Below, in pieces: positions 50,369 through 64,000 of a stretch of 64,000 bases of DNA. The stretch covers positions 695 through 64,694 of the forward strand of contig CALJUZ010000106.1 of NCBI GenBank assembly GCA_937975235.1, written 5' to 3'. The position numbers were made by a program, and so were the translations under genes. Within the stretch, counting starts at the first letter, position 1. The number at the start of each line of letters is the position of its first letter. The notes beneath the pieces are model-generated. The model did not search any database. It saw only the letters and a list, made by a program, of their open reading frames with translations, and was not told the DNA's origin. Origin of the DNA: an uncultured Bacillota bacterium. GTDB taxonomy: Bacteria; Bacillota; Limnochordia; Limnochordales; ZCTH02-B6.

Positions 50369-51174
50369 GCGGGCGCGTACAGAAGGGTGGCGGCGCGGGC
50401 CCGCACTTCGATGCGCGGCCGACTCAGCTCGTGCAGCTCGGCGATGCGCGCCCGCGCCAGTGCCACGGCCGCCCTGTCGGGCGGCCGCTCGGCCGTCGCC
50501 CGCTCCAGGTAGGCGTACAGCCGGTCCAGCTCCTCTTCAAGCCGCAGCAGCGCTTCCATGTACCACGACGGGTCCTCGTCGGCCAGCTGCCTGCACAGCG
50601 CGTCCACCGCCCTTTGGTGGGCGTCGCCCACGGACAGGCGCGGCCGCTCCGCGTCGGCCACGCCGTCGCCCATGGCTTCCAGCGGTTCGTCGAGCAGGGG
50701 AGGGCAAGGAAACGCCGCGCCGTCGACCAAGTCCACGGCCACCGGCTCCAGCCGCTCCCGCACGGAGCGGCCCACGCGGGCCACCACGAAGTGAAACACG
50801 AGAAACGGCCGCAGCGGGCCTCCCCGGCCCGACGCCGGGCGCAGGCGGGCCCCGCCCAGGGCGCACTCCCGCAGCGCCAGCCCGCACATCTGCTCCAGTC
50901 GCGGGCTGCCGGGCGCGAGGGGCTCGCCCGGATGGGCCGCCTCCGTCTGCGGATCTTCGAAGGCGAAGTAGAGCGTGGTCAGGCCGGCGTCCGCGCCGGC
51001 CCACAAGCCTAGCGTCCAAAGCGGGCGGTTTTCCAGCAGCGCCAGCTGCTCCCGGGTCAGCTCCACCCGCATGCCGCCGGGCAGGGGCTGCGTCCGCGCG
51101 CCCATCGCGGCGAAGAAGCGGTGGGTGAAGTCTGCCACGTCGGGTCCCGGCACGCGGCCTCGCGCCTCCGTCAC
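50320..51174 (-). CDS. yqhG: YqhG-like protein
   Basis: '[17 protein letters not shown]' and 'GSPRLEQM' resemble YqhG; overlaps the stop of the yqhH-like helicase. Confidence 0.7.
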
Positions 51175-52940
51175 GAAAGAATGCGCCGGCTTAGTTCCCG
51201 GGCGTGCTCCGCGGCCCGCAGCGCCTCCGCCCGCGCCGCCTCCACCCGCGCCGCGAGCTCGTCCAGGCGCCGCCGGACTTCAGCGCCGTCCCGGGCGTCC
51301 AGCACGATGTCGGCGATGGCCTGCTCAAAGGTCCTGTTCATGCGCAAGCGGGTCCACACGGCCTCCACGTCTCCCACCACCGCCCGGAACAGGTTCAGTT
51401 TGTCGTGCAGCAGCGCCACGATGTGCTCCTCGATAGTGTCCTTGGTCGCCATGTTGTAAATGTGCACGTCCCGCGTCTGGCCCAGCCGGTGCACCCGCCC
51501 GATGCGCTGCTCCAGCCGCATGGGGTTCCACGGCAGGTCGAAATTAACGACGCTGCGGCAAAACTGAAAGTTCAGCCCTTCGCCGCCGGATTCGGTGCTT
51601 ACCAGCACTTTGACGCCCGTGCGAAACAGCTGCCGCGTCCACTCCTTGCGCGAGGGCGACATGGAACCGTCGAAACCGAGGCTCGGGATTCCCGCCTGTT
51701 CCAGCCGCCAGCGGATGTAGCGCTGGGTCATGCGGTATTCGGTGAACACGATGAACTGCTCGTCGGGGGGGCTGTCTTCGATAAGCGCGATGAGGGCGTC
51801 GCACTTGCTGCTGGTGTCCACCACCTGGTTGCCCAGCGCCAAAAGCTCCGCCAGGCGCCGCCGCGCCTCCCGGTCCTCGGTCCGCTCGTACATCCGCTGC
51901 AGCGTGCTCATGGCCGCCGGCGCGCTGCTGCACAGCTCCCGCTGGAGGGTGACAAGGGGCAAAGCCCCGCTGGCCCTGGAGCCTGCCCGCCGGAACCCCT
52001 CGCGGACGAACTCGGTGACCGCGTCGTAAAACCGCCGCTCGGGCGGCGTCAGCCGCACCGGCACGGCGAACACGTGCCGCGGCGGAAACAGGACCGTGCC
52101 CGGCCCTCTCTCGGCGCGGACGACGTAGCGCCGCAGCTCCGCCCGCAGCGCGTCGACGCGGCGGGGCGTCCGCTTGTCGACCACGAACCGGGCCTGAAAC
52201 TGGCGCCAGGTGCCCAGGGCCCCGGGCGCCAGCAGCGTCACCAGGTTATACAGCTCTCGCAGGTCGTTTTGCACCGGCGTCGCGGTGAGAAGCAGGCAGT
52301 AGCGGCGGCGGATGCCGCTGACGAAGCGCCAGTTGTCGGAGCGCGCGTTTTTCAGCCGGTGGGCTTCGTCCACGATGAGCATGTCGCAGCCCAGCCGGAG
52401 CACCGCGTCGCGGTGAGGCGGCCGCTTGGCCGTGTCCAGGGACGCGACCAAGACGGGGCAGCCCTCCCAGTCGTGCAGGCCCCGCTGGCGCACCGCCGGG
52501 ATGCCGAACTTCTCCCGCAGCTCCAGCTGCCACTGCCACGTCAGGGACGCCGGCGCCAGCACCAGGGCCCGTCGCACCAGTCCCCGCAGCATGTACTCTT
52601 TCAGGATCATGCCCGCCTCGACGGTTTTCCCCAGGCCGACTTCGTCGGCCAGGATGGCCCGCCCGTCCATGTCCTCCACGACTCGCCGGCAGGTCTCGAG
52701 CTGGTACGGATAGGGCACCAGACCGGCCCTGCGCCAAAGCTCCCGGCAGTGCCGCCCGATGAGCAGACCGTCGCCCGGCTGCCGGAGCGACAAAGCCAGC
52801 GCCTCCAGAGCCAGCCGGTGCAGCTCGGGCGGGGAAAACCGCTGTTCCTGCACCCGCCGGGCGATGTCGCGCAGAGCCGTTTCCGACACGAGGACTTCGA
52901 CGGCGCCGGCCCGCCGCGGCGGCGCGAACCGTTCCTCCAT
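51171..52940 (-). CDS. yqhH: SNF2-family helicase YqhH-like
   Basis: ILADEVGLGKT, DEAH, LTATPVQN, STESGGEGLNFQ, LPWNPMRLEQRIGRVHRLGQ. Confidence 0.9.
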   Translation of the reverse strand: MEERFAPPRRAGAVEVLVSETALRDIARRVQEQRFSPPELHRLALEALALSLRQPGDGLLIGRHCRELWRRAGLVPYPYQLETCRRVVEDMDGRAILADEVGLGKTVEAGMILKEYMLRGLVRRALVLAPASLTWQWQLELREKFGIPAVRQRGLHDWEGCPVLVASLDTAKRPPHRDAVLRLGCDMLIVDEAHRLKNARSDNWRFVSGIRRRYCLLLTATPVQNDLRELYNLVTLLAPGALGTWRQFQARFVVDKRTPRRVDALRAELRRYVVRAERGPGTVLFPPRHVFAVPVRLTPPERRFYDAVTEFVREGFRRAGSRASGALPLVTLQRELCSSAPAAMSTLQRMYERTEDREARRRLAELLALGNQVVDTSSKCDALIALIEDSPPDEQFIVFTEYRMTQRYIRWRLEQAGIPSLGFDGSMSPSRKEWTRQLFRTGVKVLVSTESGGEGLNFQFCRSVVNFDLPWNPMRLEQRIGRVHRLGQTRDVHIYNMATKDTIEEHIVALLHDKLNLFRAVVGDVEAVWTRLRMNRTFEQAIADIVLDARDGAEVRRRLDELAARVEAARAEALRAAEHARELSRRILS

Positions 52941-53225: not shown

Positions 53226-54923
53226 TTGAAGCGTTCACTCAGCTGGCTTATGGCTGCGGCCCTCGTCCTGGCGTTCGGACTGGGCGCGCTGGCGCAGCCG
53301 TACGTCATGGAGGCGGAGACCATCGGGCAGTACGGCGGGGAAATCCGCATCGCCACGCTGGGCGACCCGCGGACGTTCAACCCGTATCTGGCCAAGGAGA
53401 CGTCTTCCACGGACGTCATTATCGGCCACATCTTCGAGCCCTTGATCGGCCGCAACGGCGTGACCACGGCCCACGAGCCCCGCCTGGCCAAGGCGTGGGA
53501 GTTCAGCGAGGACGGCACCGTCTGGACGTTCTACCTGCGTGAAGGCGTCTACTGGCACGACGGCGTCGAGTTCACGGCCGACGACGTCATCTTCACGCTG
53601 GATATCATCTACGATCCCGAGATCCCGAACAACTACCGGGACGGCATGCTGTATCCGGACCCGATCCAGTACCGCAAGATTGACCGCTACACGGTGGAGT
53701 TCACGTTCCCGATGGCTTTGGCCACCGCCATGGACGACGTGTCCTTCCCCATCATCCCCAAGCACATCCTGGAGCAGCCCTGGAAGGAAGGGCGCTTCAA
53801 CGAGATGTGGGGCGTGGACACGCCGCCGTGGGAGATCATCGGCACCGGCCCGTTCCAGATGGTCGAGTACCGGCCCAGCGAGCGCATCGTCATGACCCGC
53901 AACCCCAACTACTGGCGGGTCGACGCGGAGGGCAACCCGCTGCCGTACATCACGCGCTTCGTCATGTACATCGCGGGGAACCAGGACGCCATGCGCCTGA
54001 TGTTCGACAACCGTGAAACGAACATCTACGGCGTGCGGGGCACGGAAGTGGACGAGATGCAGGACAACGCGGAGCGCGGCGGCTACACTATCTACGAGGG
54101 CGGCCCGACCTTCAGCACGCTGTTCGTCGTGTTCAACCAGAACGAGCTGTTCGTGCCGTCGCCCAAGGTGGAATGGTTCCAGAACAAGCTGTTCCGCCAG
54201 GCCGTGGCCCACGCGGTGGACAAGCAGTCGCTAATCGACATCGTCTTCGGCGGCCGCGCCGTGCCGCAGTGGAGCCCGGTCAGCGCGCCCAACCGCCAGT
54301 TCCTCAAGGAAGACGTAAAGACGTATCCGTACGACCTGGAGGAATCCCGCCGTCTGCTGGCCGAGGCCGGCTTCACGTGGGGTCCCGACGGCAGGCTGTA
54401 CGACTGGAACGGCAACCACGTGGAGTTCACGCTGTCCACCAACGAAGGCAACCTGCAGCGTGAAACGTTCATGACGCTGCTGGCCGAGGACCTGACCGAG
54501 CTGGGCATGACCGTCCACACCAACCCGATGGACTTCAACCTGCTGGTGAACCAGCTGACGTCGGGCGAGAACTGGGACGCCATCATCATCGGCCTGACCG
54601 GCGGCGTCGACCCGGACGGCGGCAGCAACGTGTGGCAGAGCAGCGGCGGCCTGCACATGTGGAACATCGGGCGCGACGAACCCCAGACCGAGTGGGAGGC
54701 CCGCGTGGACGAGATCTTCGAGATCGGCCGCACCATCCTCGATCCGGAAGAGCGGGTCAAGGTGTACTACGAGTGGCAGGACATCATCGCGGAAGAAGTG
54801 CCGCTCATTTACGCCGTGACCCCGCTGGTCTACGCGGCGGCGCGCAACGAGATCAAGAACATCGAGTACACCGCCTACGGCGGCTCGCTGCACAACATCC
54901 ACGTGCTGTGGATTGACAACTAA
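53226..54923 (+). CDS. Family-5 ABC substrate-binding protein (peptide/nickel class), canonical domain order
   Basis: Signal peptide ALA/Q with no lipobox Cys; GGEIR..PRTFNP, WHDG, GTGPF, NYW, RQAVAHAVD, YDLEESRRLL. Confidence 0.93.
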   Translation: MKRSLSWLMAAALVLAFGLGALAQPYVMEAETIGQYGGEIRIATLGDPRTFNPYLAKETSSTDVIIGHIFEPLIGRNGVTTAHEPRLAKAWEFSEDGTVWTFYLREGVYWHDGVEFTADDVIFTLDIIYDPEIPNNYRDGMLYPDPIQYRKIDRYTVEFTFPMALATAMDDVSFPIIPKHILEQPWKEGRFNEMWGVDTPPWEIIGTGPFQMVEYRPSERIVMTRNPNYWRVDAEGNPLPYITRFVMYIAGNQDAMRLMFDNRETNIYGVRGTEVDEMQDNAERGGYTIYEGGPTFSTLFVVFNQNELFVPSPKVEWFQNKLFRQAVAHAVDKQSLIDIVFGGRAVPQWSPVSAPNRQFLKEDVKTYPYDLEESRRLLAEAGFTWGPDGRLYDWNGNHVEFTLSTNEGNLQRETFMTLLAEDLTELGMTVHTNPMDFNLLVNQLTSGENWDAIIIGLTGGVDPDGGSNVWQSSGGLHMWNIGRDEPQTEWEARVDEIFEIGRTILDPEERVKVYYEWQDIIAEEVPLIYAVTPLVYAAARNEIKNIEYTAYGGSLHNIHVLWIDN

Positions 54924-55004
54924 GCGCAGCCCAGGCGGCAAACGGGGTCGGACGGGGACGCGCTCCCCGTCCGGCCTATCCTTCTCGACGGAAAGAGGAT
55001 TGCG

Positions 55005-55991
55005 GTGCACGCGTTCATACTCCGGCGTCTTCTCAACATGATTCCGCTCTTGATCGGCATTTCGTTTCTGAGCTTTTCCATTATGTACATGGCGCCCGGC
55101 GACTTTCTCGGGGAGCTGCGCCTCAACCCGCAGATCTCCGCGGAAACCATCGAGATGATGCGGGCCCAGTACGGACTGGACAAGCCGTTTATCGTGCAGT
55201 ACTGGCTCTGGTTCAAAGAAGCGTTTCCGATGCCGGGCAACTGGAAGATCAACCTAGGCCGCTCGTTCCAGTACCACACGCCGGTGACCACCTTGATCGG
55301 CTTTTACGCGTTCAACACGTTGCTGCTGTCGCTGACCTCGGCCGTGTTGTCGTGGCTCATCGCCATTCCCATCGGCATCTACGCGGCCCGCAAACAGTAC
55401 AGCTTCGGCGACAAAGTGCTGACGACGCTGGCCTTTATGGGCGTCTCCATCCCCAACTTTTTCCTGGCCCTCATTATTTTGTACTTCGTGGTGCGCTGGG
55501 AACTGCCGCTGCCCATCGGCGGCGCCACCAGCCTGGGCTATGACGAGCTGACCCTTTGGCAGAAAATCGTCGACCGCGCGCACCACCTGATCATCCCCAC
55601 GCTGGTGCTGACCACGGGCAGCACCGCGGGGCTCATGCGCTACATGCGCAGCAACCTGCTGGACACCCTGCGCCAGGACTACGTGCGCACGGCGCGCGCG
55701 AAAGGGCTGTCCGAGCGGGTGGTCGTGTACAAGCACGCGCTGCGCAACGCCATCAATCCGCTCATCACGTTCTTCGGCTTTGAGATTGCCTCGCTGCTGA
55801 GCGGCGCGACGCTGACCGAGTTCGTCACCAGCTACCCGGGCCTCGGGCGGCTCCTGTACGGCGGCTTGCGGGCCAACGACTATCACCTGGTCCTGGGCGG
55901 CCTGATGGTCGGGTCCGTCATGCTGATGCTCGGCAACCTCATCGCCGACATTATGCTGGCGTGGGCGGACCCCCGCATCCGCTATCAGTAA
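55005..55991 (+). CDS. OppB/DppB-type permease
   Basis: MAPGD, YGLDKP, DYVRTARAKGL, HALRNA. Confidence 0.94.
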   Translation: MHAFILRRLLNMIPLLIGISFLSFSIMYMAPGDFLGELRLNPQISAETIEMMRAQYGLDKPFIVQYWLWFKEAFPMPGNWKINLGRSFQYHTPVTTLIGFYAFNTLLLSLTSAVLSWLIAIPIGIYAARKQYSFGDKVLTTLAFMGVSIPNFFLALIILYFVVRWELPLPIGGATSLGYDELTLWQKIVDRAHHLIIPTLVLTTGSTAGLMRYMRSNLLDTLRQDYVRTARAKGLSERVVVYKHALRNAINPLITFFGFEIASLLSGATLTEFVTSYPGLGRLLYGGLRANDYHLVLGGLMVGSVMLMLGNLIADIMLAWADPRIRYQ

Positions 55992-56017
55992 CGGGAGAGA
56001 GAGGACTGGTTGCGTCG

Positions 56018-57166
56018 ATGGCAACGACACCGACTGCACCAAGCCCCGGCGCTCCTCCGGCTCCGGCGAAGGCGGCCGAGGAGTACCGCGGCTTTTCGCT
56101 GACGGCGCTGGCGTGGCGGCGTTTTCGGCGGCACAAGCTGGCCATGTACGCGTCCGTGGTGCTCATCATCTTGTACGCGGCCGCCATCTTTTCGCCGTTT
56201 CTGGCGCCGTATTCGGAGACGCGCTCCAATCGGCAGAAGTACTTCCACCCGCCGACGAAAATCCACTTTTTTGACGAGAACGGCCGCCTGACGCGTCCGT
56301 ACGTGTACAACTACCGGCTGGTGGACGTGGGCCGGCGCATTTACGAGCCCGTCACCACGACGAAGTATCCAATCAAGTTCTTCGTCAAAGGCGAGTCGTA
56401 CAAGCTGTTCGGCTTGATCGAGTGGGACGTGCACCTCTACGGCGTCGACTCGCCGGCGGTCATCTATCCCCTGGGCGCGGATCACCTGGGCCGCGACATC
56501 GTGTCGCGCATGCTGCACGGCTCCCGCAAGTCGCTGTTCATCGTGATTCCGCTCATCGTCATTACCGTTTCCATCGGCCTGATGTACGGCGGCATTTCGG
56601 GCTACTTCGGCGGCCGCACGGACAACATCATGATGCGCATCGGCGAAGTGGTCATGGCCGTTCCGAGCTTTTACCTGCTCATCGCCCTCGCGGGCGTCAT
56701 GCGCGACGTGCCCGCGCAGCAGCGCTTCGCCGCGGTCATCGCGATCCTGGGCTTGGTCTCGTGGGCGGGCTTCGCCCGGGTGATCCGCGGCATGGTGCTG
56801 AGCCTCCGGCAGCAAGAGTTCGTCGAGGGCGCGCTGGCCATCGGCAATTCGCACCTGCGCACCATCGTGCGCCACATTTTGCCCAACACCATCTCCTACG
56901 TCGTCGTGTCCATCACGCTGCAAGTGCCGGGCTTCATCATCGCCGAGTCCAGCCTGAGCTTCCTGGGGCTGGGCGTGCAGGAGCCTTTTTCCAGCTGGGG
57001 CAACATGCTCAGCAACGCGACGGATTTGACCAACCTGACGCGCTATCCGTGGATGCTGGCCCCCGGCTTTCTCATTTTCATCACGGTCCTGGCCTGGAAC
57101 TACGTGGGCGACGGCGTGCGGGACGCGCTGGACCCGCGGGCGGTGACCAGCGGGGAGCCCAGGTAA
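56018..57166 (+). CDS. OppC/DppC-type permease
   Basis: PLGADHLGRD, RQQEFVEGA, RHILPN, ESSLSFLGLG, GDGVRDALDP. Confidence 0.94.
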   Translation: MATTPTAPSPGAPPAPAKAAEEYRGFSLTALAWRRFRRHKLAMYASVVLIILYAAAIFSPFLAPYSETRSNRQKYFHPPTKIHFFDENGRLTRPYVYNYRLVDVGRRIYEPVTTTKYPIKFFVKGESYKLFGLIEWDVHLYGVDSPAVIYPLGADHLGRDIVSRMLHGSRKSLFIVIPLIVITVSIGLMYGGISGYFGGRTDNIMMRIGEVVMAVPSFYLLIALAGVMRDVPAQQRFAAVIAILGLVSWAGFARVIRGMVLSLRQQEFVEGALAIGNSHLRTIVRHILPNTISYVVVSITLQVPGFIIAESSLSFLGLGVQEPFSSWGNMLSNATDLTNLTRYPWMLAPGFLIFITVLAWNYVGDGVRDALDPRAVTSGEPR

Positions 57167-57325: not shown

Positions 57326-57401
57326 GGGCCGGTAGCTCAGCTGGGAGAGCGCTGCGTTCGCAACGCAGAGGTCGGCGGTTCGAGCCCGCTCCGGTCCACC
57401 A
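57326..57401 (+). tRNA. tRNA-Ala(CGC)
   Basis: Anticodon arm CTGCG-TTCGCAA-CGCAG; G3:U70 pair; CCA end. Confidence 0.95.
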
Positions 57402-57405
57402 CGAA

Positions 57406-57447
57406 AACGCCCTCTGGAAGCCGGTTTCCAGAGGGCGTTGCTTTTTT
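57406..57447 (+). terminator. Intrinsic terminator after tRNA-Ala
   Basis: 14-bp perfect stem AACGCCCTCTGGAA/TTCCAGAGGGCGTT then GCTTTTTT. Confidence 0.85.
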
Positions 57448-57449
57448 CG

Positions 57450-57491: not shown

Positions 57492-57883
57492 GCCAAACCG
57501 CCGGGACCGAAATGACTTACATTATGTAACCCCCAGAACTTTTGACCCACCGACGTTTTTTCTGTCTATTCGCCTTCAAGTCAGAAGCAAATAACATTTG
57601 TTCTTGCGACTTGCAACGGCTCCCAAAATGATATCATGGAGCTAATACGCTATGACACTTTTTTCTTCCGTGTCAAAAGAGGAATCGTGTTACCTTCAGC
57701 GAAGATACTTTCCCCAAGGTAGGTTATGTTTGTCACCTGCCGCATCGGATCCGGCTGCAGCCGGACGGGGGAGGGATGCCGGAAGCGACGGAGGACGACA
57801 CATGGCGCGGGCCTCGGCGTTGAGGCCAGGAAACGCAGTTTCAGTCGCAGCGTGACACGGAAGGACAGAGGAGGTTGTACGTT

Positions 57884-59590
57884 TTGCGCAAGTTGCTGAC
57901 CTTGACCCTGGCGCTGGCCGTTCTGGTCGCGGGCAACGCGCTGGTCTTCGCCCAGGAGGCCGACTGGGGCGTCCGGGGTCCCTACGTGGACGAAATTTTG
58001 CTGCCGATTATCGCCGACGACGAAGCGCAGCTTCTGGCTCTGCTGCGGGGCGACATCCACGTGCTGCCGGGCCGGGCCAATCCCGCGCACCTGGCGCGCC
58101 TGGAGGCCGAGCCCAACGTGGACGTGACGGTGTCGCCGGGCTTCCACATGTTCTACCTGGCGTTCAACATGCGGAAGGATCCCCTGGATGACATCGTGGT
58201 CCGGCGGGCCCTCGCGCACGTCATCGACCGCGACGAAATCATCTTCTCGCTCTTCCAGGGCTACATGCTGCCCTTGGCGGAGTTCGTGCCGCCGGCCTCG
58301 CCGTTCTTCAACCCGGACGTGGACGTGGCGGAGTACGACCCCGAGCTGGCCGCGCAGATTCTGGACGACGCGGGCTACGTCATGGGGCCCAACGGCATCC
58401 GCATCAACCCGCGCACGGGCCAGGAGCTGCGGCCGCTGGAGCTGCTGACGCCCACGGCGGAAGAAGCGCCCACGTCGGCCGAACTGGGCGTCATCATCGC
58501 CGAGGCGGCCCAGGCCATCGGCCTGCCGGTGGTCGCGACGCCCATGGACTTCAACGTTATCGTCGACCGCATCAGCAATGAGACGGAAGACGGCGGCCGC
58601 AACTTCGACATGTACGTGCTGGCGTGGAGCCTGAGCCGCTTCCCGACGCACCTGTACTCGCTGTTCCACTCCGACTTCGACGTGGACGGCGGCAACAACA
58701 ACCCGGGCATGCGTGACCCGCAGTACGACGCGGCGGCGGAGCGGGTGTTCCGGCCGCGCGACCTGGATGAGGCCTTCGAGGCCGCGTACGAGGCCCAGGA
58801 GATCATCCAGTGGGTGCAGCCCTACATCCCGCTGTACTCCCGTCCGTACTTCGACGCGTTCCGCTCGGACATCGTGACGGGCTACGTGCCGCACCTGGGC
58901 TACGGCGCCGCGAGCAACGTGAGCTCCAGCATCTGGACGCCCCTGAACATCCGCCTGGTGGATCAGGAGCGCGGCGGCACCGTCCGCTTCCTGCTGGACG
59001 TGGAGCCGGGCAACCTGAACGTGCTGGTGGGCACGTCCGCCTACGACAGCCGCGTGTTCGGCCTCGTCTACGGTCCGGGCCTGATCACGGCCGAGCCGTA
59101 CGAGAACCAGGACTTCCCGTGGGAAGCCACGCACTGGGAAGTGGACACGTGGATTACGCCCGAGGGCAACGAGGGCAGCAAGATCACGTACTATCTGCGC
59201 GACGACGTCACGTGGCATGACGGCGTGCCCTTCACGGCCCACGACGTCAAGTTCACCATGGACTACCTGAAGGAGCAGCGGGTGCCGAAGTACCAGACGG
59301 CGTGGATTGACTACAGCCATGCCGAGGTCATCGACGACTACACGGTGACCGTGTACTTCAACACCGTCAGCTACTGGCACACGTACAACGTGGCCGGATT
59401 CCTGGCCAAGCACATCTGGGAAAACGTGCCGGTGTACGACGAGTTCGAGCCGTGGAAGGAGCCCCATCCGACCGTTGAAGGCTTGACGATGATGATCGGC
59501 ACCGGGCCCTTCGTCTTCAAGGAGTACGTGCCGGGCGAATACGTTCGCGTCGTGCGCTACGAAGACTTCTGGGCGGGCCTGGACAAGTAG
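57884..59590 (+). CDS. Family-5 ABC substrate-binding protein with permuted domain order
   Basis: TTG after GGAGG; signal peptide VFA/Q without Cys; PYVDEI, RRALAHVIDR, YDPELAAQILDDAG come first, GGTV, WHDG, GTGPF, DFW come last. Confidence 0.88.
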   Translation: MRKLLTLTLALAVLVAGNALVFAQEADWGVRGPYVDEILLPIIADDEAQLLALLRGDIHVLPGRANPAHLARLEAEPNVDVTVSPGFHMFYLAFNMRKDPLDDIVVRRALAHVIDRDEIIFSLFQGYMLPLAEFVPPASPFFNPDVDVAEYDPELAAQILDDAGYVMGPNGIRINPRTGQELRPLELLTPTAEEAPTSAELGVIIAEAAQAIGLPVVATPMDFNVIVDRISNETEDGGRNFDMYVLAWSLSRFPTHLYSLFHSDFDVDGGNNNPGMRDPQYDAAAERVFRPRDLDEAFEAAYEAQEIIQWVQPYIPLYSRPYFDAFRSDIVTGYVPHLGYGAASNVSSSIWTPLNIRLVDQERGGTVRFLLDVEPGNLNVLVGTSAYDSRVFGLVYGPGLITAEPYENQDFPWEATHWEVDTWITPEGNEGSKITYYLRDDVTWHDGVPFTAHDVKFTMDYLKEQRVPKYQTAWIDYSHAEVIDDYTVTVYFNTVSYWHTYNVAGFLAKHIWENVPVYDEFEPWKEPHPTVEGLTMMIGTGPFVFKEYVPGEYVRVVRYEDFWAGLDK

Positions 59591-59749
59591 GGAGGCCGAG
59601 TCCGGGCCCGGGGGTTTGACCGGCCGCCGGTCCCGGACGACGCTTGGAGGATGAAGCAACGTTCCTGCGGGCGCCGGCCGGACAGCGGCGCCCGCAGGAG
59701 TTGTTGCGTCTAAGCGGACCTACGTTTGCGCAGGAAAGGTCGTGTTTTT

Positions 59750-60715
59750 ATGTCGGGGACCTACATATGGCGTCGCATCGGCTACGGGCTGATTACATTG
59801 TTCATTATCGTGACGCTGAATTTCGTCATTTTCCGCATTATGCCCGGCGACCCCACGTCGCTGGTGCTCAGCCCCGACTTTACGCCGGAAATGCGGCAGC
59901 TGCTTCTGGAAAAGTACGGACTGGACCAGCCGCTGCCGACCCAGTACGTACTGTACCTGAAAAGCATGCTTACCTTTGACTTCGGCCGCTCCTTCTACAA
60001 TCGCCAGCCCGTCCTCGAGGAGCTCCTGGCCCGTCTGCCCAACACGCTGATGCTTTTGGGAACGGCCTTTGTTCTGAACGTCTTTATCGGCGTCACCCTG
60101 GGCCTGCGCATGGCCACCAAGCAAGGCACGCGCCTGGAGGCGGCCGTCACCGGCGTCTCGCTGTTTCTCAACGCCATGCCGGGCTTTTTCATCGGTTTGC
60201 TCCTTTTGTTGGCGTTCGCGTACTACTGGCCGATTTTCCCCATCCGCGGGACCATGAGCGTGCCGCCGCCCACGGAGTTTTGGGACATTGTTCTTGACCG
60301 GATTCACCACTTCATCCTGCCCGTGGCCGCGGTGACGCTGAGCGGCTACGGCTCGTGGTATTTGTACACGCGCAACAACGTTATCGGCGCGCTGAGTCAG
60401 GACTACGTGCTCACCGCCCGGGCCAAGGGCCTGCCCGAGCAGGTCGTCTTGTACCGGCACGCGTTTCGCAGCGTCCTGCCGCCCATCGTGACGCTGGTGT
60501 TTTTGTCCCTGCCCGGGCTGATTACGGGCGCGGTCATCACGGAGCAGATTTTCTCGCTGTACGGCGTCGGGCGGTACCTGATCGAAGCCACGACCCAGCA
60601 GGACTATCCGGTGGTGCAGGGCGCGTTCTACATCATCGCGCTGGCCGTTCTAATCAGCAACATGCTGGCCGACCTGGCGTACGGTCTGGTCGACCCGCGC
60701 ATTCGACTGAGGTGA
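59750..60715 (+). CDS. OppB/DppB-type permease
   Basis: IMPGDP, YGLDQP, DYVLTARAKGL, DYPVVQG. Confidence 0.94.
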   Translation: MSGTYIWRRIGYGLITLFIIVTLNFVIFRIMPGDPTSLVLSPDFTPEMRQLLLEKYGLDQPLPTQYVLYLKSMLTFDFGRSFYNRQPVLEELLARLPNTLMLLGTAFVLNVFIGVTLGLRMATKQGTRLEAAVTGVSLFLNAMPGFFIGLLLLLAFAYYWPIFPIRGTMSVPPPTEFWDIVLDRIHHFILPVAAVTLSGYGSWYLYTRNNVIGALSQDYVLTARAKGLPEQVVLYRHAFRSVLPPIVTLVFLSLPGLITGAVITEQIFSLYGVGRYLIEATTQQDYPVVQGAFYIIALAVLISNMLADLAYGLVDPRIRLR

Positions 60716-60722
60716 GGCAGCC

Positions 60723-62144
60723 ATGAGCACGAACACACGGAAGCGCAAGAGCGCCCTGCGCGAAGTGTGGGACGAATACAAGCGCTCTCCCCAGGGCATG
60801 TTCGGCCTGGTCTTGTTTTTGATCTTTCTTTTCATCGGCGTCGGGGCGCCGCTTCTGACCCCGTACGATCCGCTGGAGGACCGGGGTCTGGCCGACAGCA
60901 TGGCCCGTCCCGCGTGGATGCGGTTCTTTCCCAAGTACCGCAACGCCCCGGTGACGGTGGACGCGCTGTCTTTGCGGGACTGGAACGTGACGGTGGAGGA
61001 GAACGTGCGCCTGGAGTGGGGCCAGCGGGGCGAGGAGGAAGTGTTGTTCGTCTCACCCGCGGGCCCTGGTCCCGCCCGGTTCGTCATGGAGTACTCCTTC
61101 GACTACCACTCCGATCCGCCGGACACCTTCATTTTGCAGGTGCCCTATTCCTTTGAAGGCGACACGGGCGTGACGGGGCGGGCCGCCATCGTGCTGGTGG
61201 ATCCCAGCGGCGACGAGTACCGCATGTGGGAGTCGCGCGTCATGCGCAATCAGGTCCGCTGGACGACCCAGCGGGTGGACTCCCGGGATATGCAGCTGAA
61301 AACGCGGCTGGGCTTCCGGCCGCTGGCCAACTTGGCCCACGAGCTCATCGACGAGAAGGGCGAGTACCGCTTCCTGCTGCAGTTTGAAATCGACGGCGCG
61401 GACGACGAGAAGGGCGCGACGGTCACCGTGGGCCAGAGCCGCTTCCGCATCCCGGGCCGGCTGCACGGGCCTCTGGGCACCGACCACCTAGGCGCGGATC
61501 TGTGGGCGCAGTTCGTCTACGGAACCCGCACGTCGCTCACCATCGGCTTTATCGTCGCGGCGCTGGCGGTGGTGGTGGGCACGCTGGTGGGCATCGTCAG
61601 CGGCTACTTCGGCGGCTGGGTGGACGAGCTGCTCATGCGGCTGGTGGACGTGCTCATCGCGATTCCGTTCCTGCCCATATTGATCGTGTTCGTCGCGGTG
61701 GTGGGCAAGAGCATCAGCACCTTGGTGGTCTTGGTCGCGATCTTCTCCTGGATGAGCATTGCGCGGCTGGTGCGCTCGCAGACGCTGACGCTGCGGGAGC
61801 GCACGTTCGTGGAGGCGGCCCGGGCCGCGGGCGCGGGACCGCGCTACATCATGAAAACCCACATTTTGCCCAACGTCCTGGGCTTGGTCTTCGCCGCGCT
61901 GGTGCTGCTCATCCCCAGCGCCATCGTCACCGAGGCGACGCTGAGCTTCCTGGGCTTCGGCGACCCGCGGGTGCCCACGTGGGGCCGCATGCTGCAAAAC
62001 GCCAAGTCTTTCGGCGCGTTCACGGAGCTCGCGTGGTGGTGGATTTTGCCGCCGGGCCTGGCTCTCACCATTTTGGCCATGGCCTTCGTATTCATCGGCA
62101 ACACGCTGGACGACATCCTCAACCGTCGCAGCAGCGAGAGGTAG
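60723..62144 (+). CDS. OppC/DppC-type permease with large extracytoplasmic insertion
   Basis: 473 aa; TM1, a soluble region of about 200 aa, then PLGTDHLGAD, ERTFVEAA, HILPN, ATLSFLGFG. Confidence 0.92.
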   Translation: MSTNTRKRKSALREVWDEYKRSPQGMFGLVLFLIFLFIGVGAPLLTPYDPLEDRGLADSMARPAWMRFFPKYRNAPVTVDALSLRDWNVTVEENVRLEWGQRGEEEVLFVSPAGPGPARFVMEYSFDYHSDPPDTFILQVPYSFEGDTGVTGRAAIVLVDPSGDEYRMWESRVMRNQVRWTTQRVDSRDMQLKTRLGFRPLANLAHELIDEKGEYRFLLQFEIDGADDEKGATVTVGQSRFRIPGRLHGPLGTDHLGADLWAQFVYGTRTSLTIGFIVAALAVVVGTLVGIVSGYFGGWVDELLMRLVDVLIAIPFLPILIVFVAVVGKSISTLVVLVAIFSWMSIARLVRSQTLTLRERTFVEAARAAGAGPRYIMKTHILPNVLGLVFAALVLLIPSAIVTEATLSFLGFGDPRVPTWGRMLQNAKSFGAFTELAWWWILPPGLALTILAMAFVFIGNTLDDILNRRSSER

Positions 62145-62153
62145 GGTTGCGTC

Positions 62154-63146
62154 ATGGGACGACTGGTCGTCAGTGACCTGCAAATGCATTACAAGACGCG
62201 CAAAGGCAACGTGCGGGCCGTCGATAAGATCAGCTTCACGCTGGAGCCGGGAAGGGCTCTGGGCGTCGTGGGCGAGTCCGGCTGCGGCAAATCCAGCCTG
62301 GGCCTGACGCTGCTGCGGCTGCTTCCCAAAAACGGGGAAGTGGTGGGCGGCTCCATCCGGCTGGGCGATCAGGAGCTGCTTCAGCTCACCGACGAGGAGT
62401 TTCGCAAAAACGTCCGCTGGACGAAAATGTCCATGGTGTTTCAGGGCGCGATGAACGCCCTCAACCCGGTGCTCACCGTCGGCAGCCAAATCGCCGAAGC
62501 GATCGTGGCCCACGAGCAGACCAGCAAAGAGGAGGCCGCGGCCCGGGCCCGGCAGCTGCTGGAGATGGTGGGCATCAATCCCGATCGCTACCACCACTAT
62601 CCGCACCAGTTCAGCGGCGGCATGAAACAGCGGGCCGTCATCGCCATGGCGCTGGCGTGCAACCCGCAAATCGTCATCGCGGACGAGCCCACCACCGCCC
62701 TGGACGTGATGGTGCAGGCCCAGGTGCTCAAGGCCATGGCGGACCTGCGGGAGCGGCTGGGCCTGTCCATGATTCTCGTCAGCCACGACCTCTCGGTGGT
62801 GGCCCAGACGTGCGACGACGTGGCCGTCATGTACGCGGGCCGCATCGTCGAATACGGGCCGGTGGAAGAAGTGTTCACCAATCCTCTGCACCCGTACACG
62901 CAGGGGCTGACCCAGGCCTTTCCGGACATCGACGCGGAGCGGGCGCCCATCGTGTCCATCCCGGGGACGCCGCCCAACTTGATCAATCCGCCCGCCGGCT
63001 GCCGCTTCCATCCGCGCTGCCCCTTGGCCGACGAGGCGTGCAGGCGCATCGACCCGGAGCTGGCCGAAAAGGGCCGAGCCGGCCACAAAGTGGCCTGCCT
63101 GAAAGTGTCGGACGACGGGCAGGCGGCCGAGGTGAAGTTCGCATGA
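62154..63146 (+). CDS. OppD-type ABC ATPase
   Basis: GESGCGKS, FSGGMKQR, ADEPTTALD, C-terminal GCRFHPRC..C...VAC. Confidence 0.96.
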   Translation: MGRLVVSDLQMHYKTRKGNVRAVDKISFTLEPGRALGVVGESGCGKSSLGLTLLRLLPKNGEVVGGSIRLGDQELLQLTDEEFRKNVRWTKMSMVFQGAMNALNPVLTVGSQIAEAIVAHEQTSKEEAAARARQLLEMVGINPDRYHHYPHQFSGGMKQRAVIAMALACNPQIVIADEPTTALDVMVQAQVLKAMADLRERLGLSMILVSHDLSVVAQTCDDVAVMYAGRIVEYGPVEEVFTNPLHPYTQGLTQAFPDIDAERAPIVSIPGTPPNLINPPAGCRFHPRCPLADEACRRIDPELAEKGRAGHKVACLKVSDDGQAAEVKFA

Positions 63147-64000
63147 ACCAGCAAAACGACGTCCTTCTCGAAGTGCGCGGGCTCGTCAAGCACTTTCCGC
63201 TGCGGCGCAGCCTGAAGCAGGTGCTGCAGGGCCAGCGGCCGGCGGTGCGGGCCGTGGACGGCGTGGACTTTTTCGTGCGCCGGGGCGAGATTTTCGGGCT
63301 GGTGGGCGAGTCCGGATCGGGGAAGACCACGACGGGTCGGACGCTGCTGCGCCTGGACGAGCCCACCGCGGGACAGATCATCTTCGACGGGCAGGACATC
63401 GCCCGGCTGGACGCGGAGGGCATGCGGAAGCTCCGGCGGCGCATGCAGATCGTCTTCCAGGACCCGTACGACTCCATGAACCCCAATATGGACGTCTTCA
63501 GCATCGTGGCCGAGCCTTTGCGCATCCAGGGCCTGGACAAGGATCCGGAAGAGGTGGAGCGGCGGGTGGTGCAGGCCCTGGAGGACGTGGAGCTGACGCC
63601 GGCCGACGAGTACATGTACCGCTATCCCAAGGAGCTTTCCGGCGGCCAGCGGCAGCGCATCGCCATCGCCCGGGCGCTGGTGCTGGAGCCGGACTTCATC
63701 GTGGCCGACGAGCCGGTGTCCATGCTGGACGTGTCCATCCGCGGCGAGATCTTGAAGATCTTGATGCGCCTGGTGAAAGAGCGGGGGCTGTCGCTCCTCT
63801 TCATCACCCACGACCTGGCCTTGGCCCGGCATTTCTGCGACCGCGTGGCCGTCATGTACTTGGGCCAGATCGTCGAGTACAGCGACTCCAACAGCCTGGT
63901 GAAGCGGCCGCACCACCCGTACACGCAGGCGCTGATGCGGGCCGTGCTGTCCACGGATCCGCGGCGCAAGCACATCTATACCGGCCTCAAGGGGGAAATT
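63143..64000 (+). CDS. OppF-type ABC ATPase, 3' end outside window
   Basis: ATG 63143; AVDGVDF, GESGSGKTT, LSGGQRQR, VADEPVSMLD, HPYTQAL. Confidence 0.95.
   Translation, partial: MNQQNDVLLEVRGLVKHFPLRRSLKQVLQGQRPAVRAVDGVDFFVRRGEIFGLVGESGSGKTTTGRTLLRLDEPTAGQIIFDGQDIARLDAEGMRKLRRRMQIVFQDPYDSMNPNMDVFSIVAEPLRIQGLDKDPEEVERRVVQALEDVELTPADEYMYRYPKELSGGQRQRIAIARALVLEPDFIVADEPVSMLDVSIRGEILKILMRLVKERGLSLLFITHDLALARHFCDRVAVMYLGQIVEYSDSNSLVKRPHHPYTQALMRAVLSTDPRRKHIYTGLKGEI

Follow-up and report, generated by a model that had tools for sequence, protein, structure and literature searches.

Whether the binding protein of an ATP-binding cassette (ABC) importer can have its two halves exchanged in nature and still serve transport is the question raised by one gene in a 64,000-nucleotide stretch of DNA from an uncultured Bacillota bacterium of the class Limnochordia (contig CALJUZ010000106.1), which is referred to as a whole as the window. 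The gene, located at 57884..59590 on the forward (+) strand from the open reading frame (ORF) list, its translation and PF00496, encodes a permuted family-5 (cluster C) substrate-binding protein (SBP), which an earlier note had described as a circular permutant. Our results show that the circular permutation of this well-known fold is real, old and conserved. The protein is very probably the secreted cluster-C receptor of a complete Opp/Dpp-type importer, with a chain order that probably arose once by tandem fusion. The start on record is a TTG at 57884, which has GGAGG 10 nt upstream, gives 568 aa and is where the database copy P0003 begins; the first in-frame TTG lies at 57875 and gives an intact ORF of 571 aa, called P0001, whose residue numbering is used throughout. 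The protein belongs to the family by PF00496 (score 243.9 bits, cut-off 32.4, E 3.8e-72).

The swapped order is seen both on the family profile and in comparison with the canonical neighbour P0002 (53226-54923). PF00496 matches P0001 in two stretches, the best of which places residues 18-259 on profile positions 127-354 of 368, and P0002 in a single stretch (84-473 on profile 3-363). BLASTP of P0001 against P0002 likewise gives two swapped high-scoring segment pairs (HSPs), with 36-354 aligned to 240-562 (E 8e-18) and 367-566 to 37-230 (E 9e-16). The canonical collinear order is thus absent from P0001, and collinearity comes back only after the chain is rotated. Among PDB chains, the 60 best all show the reversed two-stretch match, with the single sequence and with the 43-member family profile alike. 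When residues 356-571 were placed ahead of 29-355, each of 46 PDB matches (46/46) became a single collinear stretch running through the artificial joint, for example 20-521 on 36-516 of 4qfk, 24-516 on 29-508 of 1vr5 and 20-499 of 4pft, and 85-510 on 85-488 of 1xoc. Rotation changed the E-value for DppA from 1.5e-27 to 4.3e-30, and DppA, AppA, NikA and TM1223 were all collinear with the rotated chain. The earlier note had foreseen two partial PF00496 matches in reversed order and a collinear realignment after the swap, and both were found. With the halves reversed in PF00496 and BLASTP and the order conserved in relatives, its claim of a permuted family-5 protein holds, and its motif order, breakpoint (after ..YEDFW and before GPYVDE), coordinates and comparison of lengths (568 vs. 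565 aa) are confirmed.

The permuted chain can be divided into two parts and a joint. The first part, called B, covers residues 36-354 (57980..58936, +) and is equivalent to the C-terminal ~60% of the canonical chain, as defined by the first of the two BLASTP segments (P0002 240-562). It contains one strand and one helix of lobe I, then crosses the hinge into lobe II, which it includes entire, with the motifs LAFN, RRALAHVIDR and YDPELAAQILDDAG, and after crossing the hinge a second time supplies the final elements of lobe I. Family-profile positions 35-334 align to DppA 208-493. Between the HSPs, residues 355-366 (TPLNIRLVDQER; 58937..58972, +) join the old C-terminus to the old mature N-terminus. 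This joint is a conserved 12-residue linker, about as long as the canonical C-terminal tail and mature N-terminal head together, with the family consensus W-T-x-LNIR-x-VD-xxx-GG (W-T-P-LNIR-LVD-QER-GG in P0001), and it is modelled as ordered (pLDDT about 90-94). The second part, called A, covers residues 367-566 (58973..59572, +; P0002 37-230 by BLASTP) and corresponds to the N-terminal ~40% of a canonical protein, with the motifs GGTVRF.., TWHDGVPFTAHDVKFT and IGTGPFVFKEY..VRYEDFW, and the chain stops 5 residues on. By phmmer, residues 431-567 align to DppA 57-206. Of the canonical YWG motif, an (F/D)WG/A-like remnant is left at both new ends.

AlphaFold2 with the family alignment predicts the fold with high confidence (pLDDT 92.2, pTM 0.89), and Foldseek matches the model to AppA, NikA, DppA, OppA and TM1223 in the PDB at E 4e-22 to 1e-17. 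These alignments cover ~300-350 columns, with a TM-score of 0.39-0.48 normalised to the query, as is expected when a sequential aligner is used on a permutant. No solved chain in B-then-A order was found in the PDB by sequence, profile or Foldseek. The domains of P0001 were mapped by carrying the lobe boundaries of DppA (1DPP) over through the family-profile and rotated-chain alignments, and the predicted layout is lobe I at ~36-87, lobe II at ~88-319, and lobe I with an extra subdomain at 320-571. As the old N- and C-termini are both part of lobe I, and as the chain is newly cut in a surface loop of that lobe, the two hinge crossings would be kept, and Venus-flytrap closure should be unaffected, judging from the model and the DppA domain map.

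The gene has a signal peptide of the SPase I type at 57884..57952 (+), read from the sequence as ..NALVFA/QEAD, without a lipobox cysteine, and P0001 is therefore taken as a free receptor. In the AlphaFold model the N-terminus forms a helix (2-22), and residues 20-29 are disordered (pLDDT <50). The canonical neighbour also has an SPase I signal without a lipobox cysteine (LGALA/QP, 53226-53300, next to ALVFA/QE at 57884-57952 in the permuted protein), and the two together are consistent with a diderm cell envelope, and hence a periplasm, in this lineage affiliated with the Bacillota.

The permuted gene is followed on the same strand by genes for an OppB/DppB-type permease (59726..60715, 329 aa; PF19300, PF00528), an OppC/DppC-type permease (60723..62144, 473 aa; PF12911 at 10-51, PF00528 at 286-470), an OppD-type ATPase (62154..63146, 330 aa; PF00005, PF08352 oligo_HPY) and an OppF-type ATPase with the same two domains (PF00005, PF08352 oligo_HPY), which starts at 63143, reaches the window's end at 64000 and runs on for ~192 nt past it (continuation L080). 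This is the SBP-OppB-OppC-OppD-OppF layout of Opp/Dpp-type (PepT family) operons, and relatives have the same layout. The proposed mechanism is that the non-lipidated secreted receptor would serve this importer as an ordinary Venus-flytrap. Its chain would begin at about position 235 of the canonical order and run through lobe II to the old C-terminus, from where the 12-residue linker would bridge to the old mature N-terminus, and it would end after the ..GTGPF..Y(E/D)xFW hairpin.

The permuted order is widespread among relatives. A word-indexed search returned ~90 full-length collinear clusters at 38-100% identity, all of them B-then-A against P0002, mostly from metagenome-assembled genomes of Limnochordia, Limnochordales or Bacillota; their annotation goes no further than 'ABC transporter substrate-binding protein' or 'hypothetical protein'. 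When 1.84 billion representatives (50% identity clusters) were searched exhaustively with phmmer, 394 matches at E <=1e-30 were obtained, and the chain order of the best 150 of the 394 was read from the segments A (363-571), B1 (28-182) and B2 (183-358). Of these 150, at least 80 have the P0001 order B1-B2-A (28-51% identity, 549-4308 aa), 23 the canonical order A-B1-B2 and 10 a second rotation, B2-A-B1. In a few more, for example P0170 (A-B1-B2-A-B1-B2) and P0232 (B1-B2-A twice), units are fused in tandem within one frame. The named B1-B2-A members beyond Limnochordia are archaeal, from Geothermarchaeales (P0123, 44% identity) and Thorarchaeota, and the archaeal loci L003, L006, L007 and L009 (Bathyarchaeia, Thorarchaeota, Promethearchaeota) have this order. 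The contig scan from which loci were taken was dominated by canonical WHDG-sharing proteins, and the informative loci were L001, L003, L006, L007 and L009 for B1-B2-A and L004 for the second order.

Many archaeal members end in an Ig-like, coiled-coil or dockerin-like tail and a membrane anchor, and these tails are anchoring modules, not leftover half-copies. P0094, P0095, P0087 and P0103 were considered as half-trimmed duplication intermediates and rejected, as their tails are Ig-like, coiled-coil or dockerin-like with anchors and hold no second half-copy. The survey of homologs proposed in the earlier note thus yielded the archaeal members, but the long relatives lack the second half-copy expected of longer intermediates, and true tandem fusions occur only in giant proteins. 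P0170 (3441 aa), P0232 (2427 aa), P0171, P0162 (4308 aa) and P0227 contain at least two family-5 units, in frame or in tandem, and the locus L009 (6079-9456) likewise has such units in frame or in adjacent genes. Giant multi-unit proteins are fused intermediates of the sort that trimming can turn into permutants. In P0170 there are, in addition, a C-terminal anchor and long stretches of Ig-like and beta-helix-like type.

The number of origins was assessed in a tree of 144 non-redundant rows, in which the three segments were re-joined in canonical order. The 102 B1-B2-A rows require two state changes on the free tree, only one of which is forced by well-supported branches. Constraining the 102 rows to one clade gave a tree 26.5 log-likelihood units above the quick free tree (approximately unbiased (AU) test, p 0.72), and a single origin of the B1-B2-A order is compatible with these sequence data. 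One clade was rejected for the second rotation (AU p 2.5e-5), which appears in at least three places among the canonical rows. Members of the second rotation are P0118, P0150, P0174, P0191, P0199, P0213, P0228, P0229, P0237 and P0264, along with the Geothermarchaeota locus L004. P0199 and the canonical P0187 form a younger pair (51-58% identical), and in P0199 the canonical C-end is joined straight to the mature N-end. The P0001 order would have arisen by in-frame tandem fusion of two family-5 genes, both ends of which were then trimmed, most likely once, and would since have been inherited in a clade of Limnochordia and several archaeal lineages. The YWG-like remnants and the tandem fusions fit such a route of duplication, fusion and trimming. 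This is close to the duplication/deletion intermediate suggested in the earlier note, with which the tandem fusions, the linker length and the P0199/P0187 pair agree, while the route itself is one that we infer.

The clade also travels with an unusual permease, an OppC that bears a predicted jelly-roll of ~200-260 residues in the loop between the first two transmembrane segments (TM1-TM2). In the window, the alignment, AlphaFold and a hidden Markov model (HMM) place this extracytoplasmic insert at about residues 52-262 of OppC (60876..61508, +), where an all-beta jelly-roll is predicted. The Pfam scan of OppC found nothing between PF12911 (10-51) and PF00528 (286-470). The gap from TM1 to the permease core is 203 aa in the window, 248 aa in L001, 262 aa in L006 (Thorarchaeota), 229 aa in L007 (Bathyarchaeia), 251 aa in L081/82 and 232 aa in L083/84, against 19-52 aa, with a few near 90-130 aa, beside canonical binding proteins (~45 loci). 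All seven permuted-clade operons with a visible OppC (window, L001, L003, L006, L007, L081/82 and L083/84) have the insert. Its alignment spans Limnochordia to Bathyarchaeia and Thorarchaeota, with F136, G163, D189 and R195 invariant. The insert HMM matches only OppCs of permuted operons and the truncated OppC of the Bathyarchaeia locus L003, and in canonical operons it finds only a flanking conserved motif; a word search for insert homologs returned only sequences of at least 57% identity. AlphaFold models the insert as an all-beta sandwich (pLDDT 84, >90 in the core), and its best Foldseek matches in the PDB are CBM61, CBM27, CBM11, CBM22, CBM16 and other jelly-rolls (E 8e-7 to 1e-4), with a TM-score of 0.4-0.56 normalised to the target against the CBM structures. 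No ABC permease structure was among these PDB fold matches. As the insert is present in permuted operons and absent beside canonical SBPs, the permuted receptor and the enlarged OppC are inherited as a pair, and we infer that the insert contacts the docked receptor or its cargo.

The residues that bind the substrate in DppA give little guidance on what the permuted receptor binds. In E. coli DppA, the peptide is gripped at its carboxyl and amino ends by Arg383 and Asp436 (precursor numbering; PMC12136057). Asp436 aligns to Ser254 of P0001, and the 102 B1-B2-A rows have G in 49, S in 16, D in 16 and T in 8 at this column; Arg383 falls in a non-aligning region, which in a gappy alignment is a weak negative. 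Reading the substrate from the clamp was consequently given up, as the residues are not conserved and the alignment is gappy there. From the sequence comparison, the substrate is probably something other than a DppA-style dipeptide. No hydrolase or peptidase hint to the substrate was found in the inspected flanks, which hold tRNA, complex I, FeoAB, DNA polymerase and ribosomal genes. Some Opp-type systems of thermophiles take up oligosaccharides. The family consensus of P0001 has many conserved tryptophans, and together with the CBM-like OppC domain they hint weakly at oligosaccharides.

Several other explanations of the swapped order and its meaning have to be considered. A metagenome-type assembly, such as the source of the window (211 contigs), could produce the order as an artefact, through a chimera, a contig joined wrongly or two neighbouring partial genes taken for one, and Logan unitigs do break inside the gene, at 59247-59279. 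However, this break falls in the conserved WHDG..FT region, ~300 nt off the junction at 58937-58972. Contigs from four runs, each of a different study, run across the junction itself without a joint and with no more than two differences; they cover 57600-59276 or 57831-59900, and one of them spans the whole gene. The order is moreover common to >170 proteins of independent origin, and the frame is uninterrupted in 22 related genomes. Nearly identical copies of the gene occur in metagenomes of compost, sludge, manure and fertilizer, in at least 20 public runs that belong to at least 14 studies, and ~22 of 61 genomes of the same class have an intact full-length collinear ortholog (50-78% identity, no internal stops), while the genome of the window has one permuted copy and several canonical paralogs. 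The chance of an artefact is accordingly close to nil: the independent contigs and intact orthologs rule out a chimera, which the earlier note had named as a check on its own claim. The unitigs of several metagenomes all break at 59247-59279, in the TWHDG..FT motif, with extra depth there, and the words at this place are probably common to paralogs or co-occurring strains. A real gene could still encode a decaying or re-purposed relic that acts as a sensor partner, chaperone or structural envelope protein and not in transport. Family-5 proteins can moonlight in signalling, and some relatives of P0001 are giant surface proteins (P0162, 4308 aa; P0170, 3441 aa) or have dockerin-like or Ig-like tails and C-terminal membrane anchors. 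Against this, the gene opens or closes a complete importer operon of five genes in Limnochordia and archaeal loci, it encodes a signal peptide and a protein of normal length with a high-confidence predicted fold, and it is conserved across the class at 50-78% identity, which makes such a relic quite improbable.

A further possibility concerns what the permutation does. The moved termini and the OppC jelly-roll might together make a docking or cargo-capture geometry unlike that of DppABCDF and OppABCD, for instance with the OppC domain clamping the receptor or pre-binding a polymeric, possibly glycan, substrate. The insert is present in 7 of 7 permuted-clade operons and absent in ~45 canonical ones, is conserved from bacteria to archaea, and is confidently folded in prediction with a CBM-like fold. 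There is also a precedent in E. coli DppABCDF, where the cleft of the receptor is touched by the DppB scoop, a periplasmic region between TM1 and TM2 of that permease (PMC12136057). On the other side, co-occurrence in one clade may be plain co-inheritance, the jelly-roll fold is generic with TM-scores of only 0.3-0.56, no glycoside hydrolase or peptidase genes flank the inspected operons, and some canonical operons have shorter inserts of ~90-130 aa. We therefore consider a functionally meaningful permutation of this kind possible but rather doubtful. The suggestion of the earlier note that docking to the permeases may change thus gains an enlarged OppC in every inspected operon of the clade, while the link to the permutation is circumstantial.

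For P0001 as a permuted receptor of an ordinary importer, with an order of single origin and a paired OppC, some results weigh on the opposite side. Its fold is an AlphaFold prediction. The single-origin test fails to reject one clade and goes no further, P0218 is placed among canonical rows in the free tree, and that tree includes only the canonical sequences closest to the query. The OppC correlation comes from seven loci of one clade, and may for that reason reflect shared descent with no functional link. Finally, as the Arg383/Asp436 clamp of DppA is not conserved, 'peptide' is a family label only.

Natural permutation has been described for one other ABC binding protein. Tp0684/TpMglB-2 of Treponema pallidum ('Type Ic / Cluster Bc') is naturally permuted, binds ligand and closes (PMC4990184). 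It resembles P0001 in having a natural, conserved circular permutation that defines a sub-class of its cluster. However, TpMglB-2 is a sugar-binding type I/cluster B protein without sequence homology to P0001, whose matches are all cluster C, and it needs a fourth hinge crossing (PMC4990184), whereas P0001 would keep two according to the model. An enlarged permease partner is not reported for TpMglB-2. The relation between the two is one of analogy in evolutionary mechanism only. The full-text literature searched held no natural permutation of a family-5/cluster C protein, only engineered permutants and TpMglB-2, and NCBIfam has no model above cut-off for the permuted clade.

Canonical cluster C proteins (DppA 1DPP/1DPE/8Z1Y, AppA 1XOC, NikA 1ZLQ and TM1223 4PFT/1VR5) are homologous to P0001 over the whole length after rotation. 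They have the bilobed fold and extra subdomain that are predicted for P0001, share with it OppB, OppC and two oligo_HPY ATPases as operon partners, and differ from it in the order (B-A in P0001, not A-B), in the DppA clamp, which P0001 does not conserve, and in the partner OppC, which has a jelly-roll here. The second rotation (B2-A-B1; P0118, P0199, P0237 and others) also joins the old C-terminus to the old N-terminus, but is cut inside lobe II after the ..LL.EAGY hairpin and has several origins from canonical ancestors, unlike the order in the window. For the OppC insert, which was previously unremarked, a comparison can be made with the MalF P2 loop of E. coli MalFGK2-MalE, a type I importer in which one permease subunit has, in a periplasmic loop, a large extracytoplasmic domain that binds the docked receptor. 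Both the permease family and the loop are different, and the likeness is of working principle only.

A broader and more speculative proposal, which we hold to be on the unlikely side, is that the family-5 fold is a rotatable circle, which repeated in-frame tandem fusion has opened at least once to B1-B2-A and several times to B2-A-B1. In the permuted clade the rotation would have been fixed along with the new OppC jelly-roll, and receptor and OppC would be a co-adapted pair, which could be ancestral as an Opp-type uptake system in several archaeal lineages and have passed later to Limnochordia. If true, docking of receptor and permease or capture of cargo would be mechanistically unlike DppABCDF/OppABCD. 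Apart from this proposal, cluster C proteins are among the best-studied ABC receptors and common biosensor scaffolds, with one chain order in every solved structure. From the large permuted clade it can be seen at which places the fold accepts new termini, which is of use in the design of sensors and fusions. Canonical forms, tandem fusions and two rotations make up a natural series for the origins of permutation. The permuted order also explains why domain-based annotation splits such proteins or calls them hypothetical, and the strictly co-occurring OppC jelly-roll offers a testable hypothesis on remodelled receptor docking in type I importers.

The surroundings of the operon show some further features. 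Upstream, a strong intrinsic terminator with a 15-pair stem and T run (57406..57449, +) follows tRNA-Ala (57326-57401) and separates the operon of the permuted protein from a canonical SBP-permease-permease cluster. This cluster (53226-57166) encodes an SBP, an OppB and an OppC with an insert of ~91 residues and has no ATPase genes of its own; it may borrow OppD and OppF of the permuted-protein operon or ATPases encoded elsewhere. Beyond OppF, a citrate-type transporter and complex I lie on the opposite strand. The spacer from the permuted SBP gene to oppB (59591-59725, 135 nt) is G+C-rich and has inverted repeats (..CCGGGGGTTTGACCGGCCGCCGGTCCCGG..) but no T-run terminator. By analogy with clostridial ABC operons, in which internal terminators have this effect (PMC9045158), it could adjust the ratio of receptor to permease. 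Further upstream, at 51171-52940 (-), a 589-aa ORF has the DEAH and helicase C motifs of an SNF2/DEAD-like helicase and is unrelated to the transporter.

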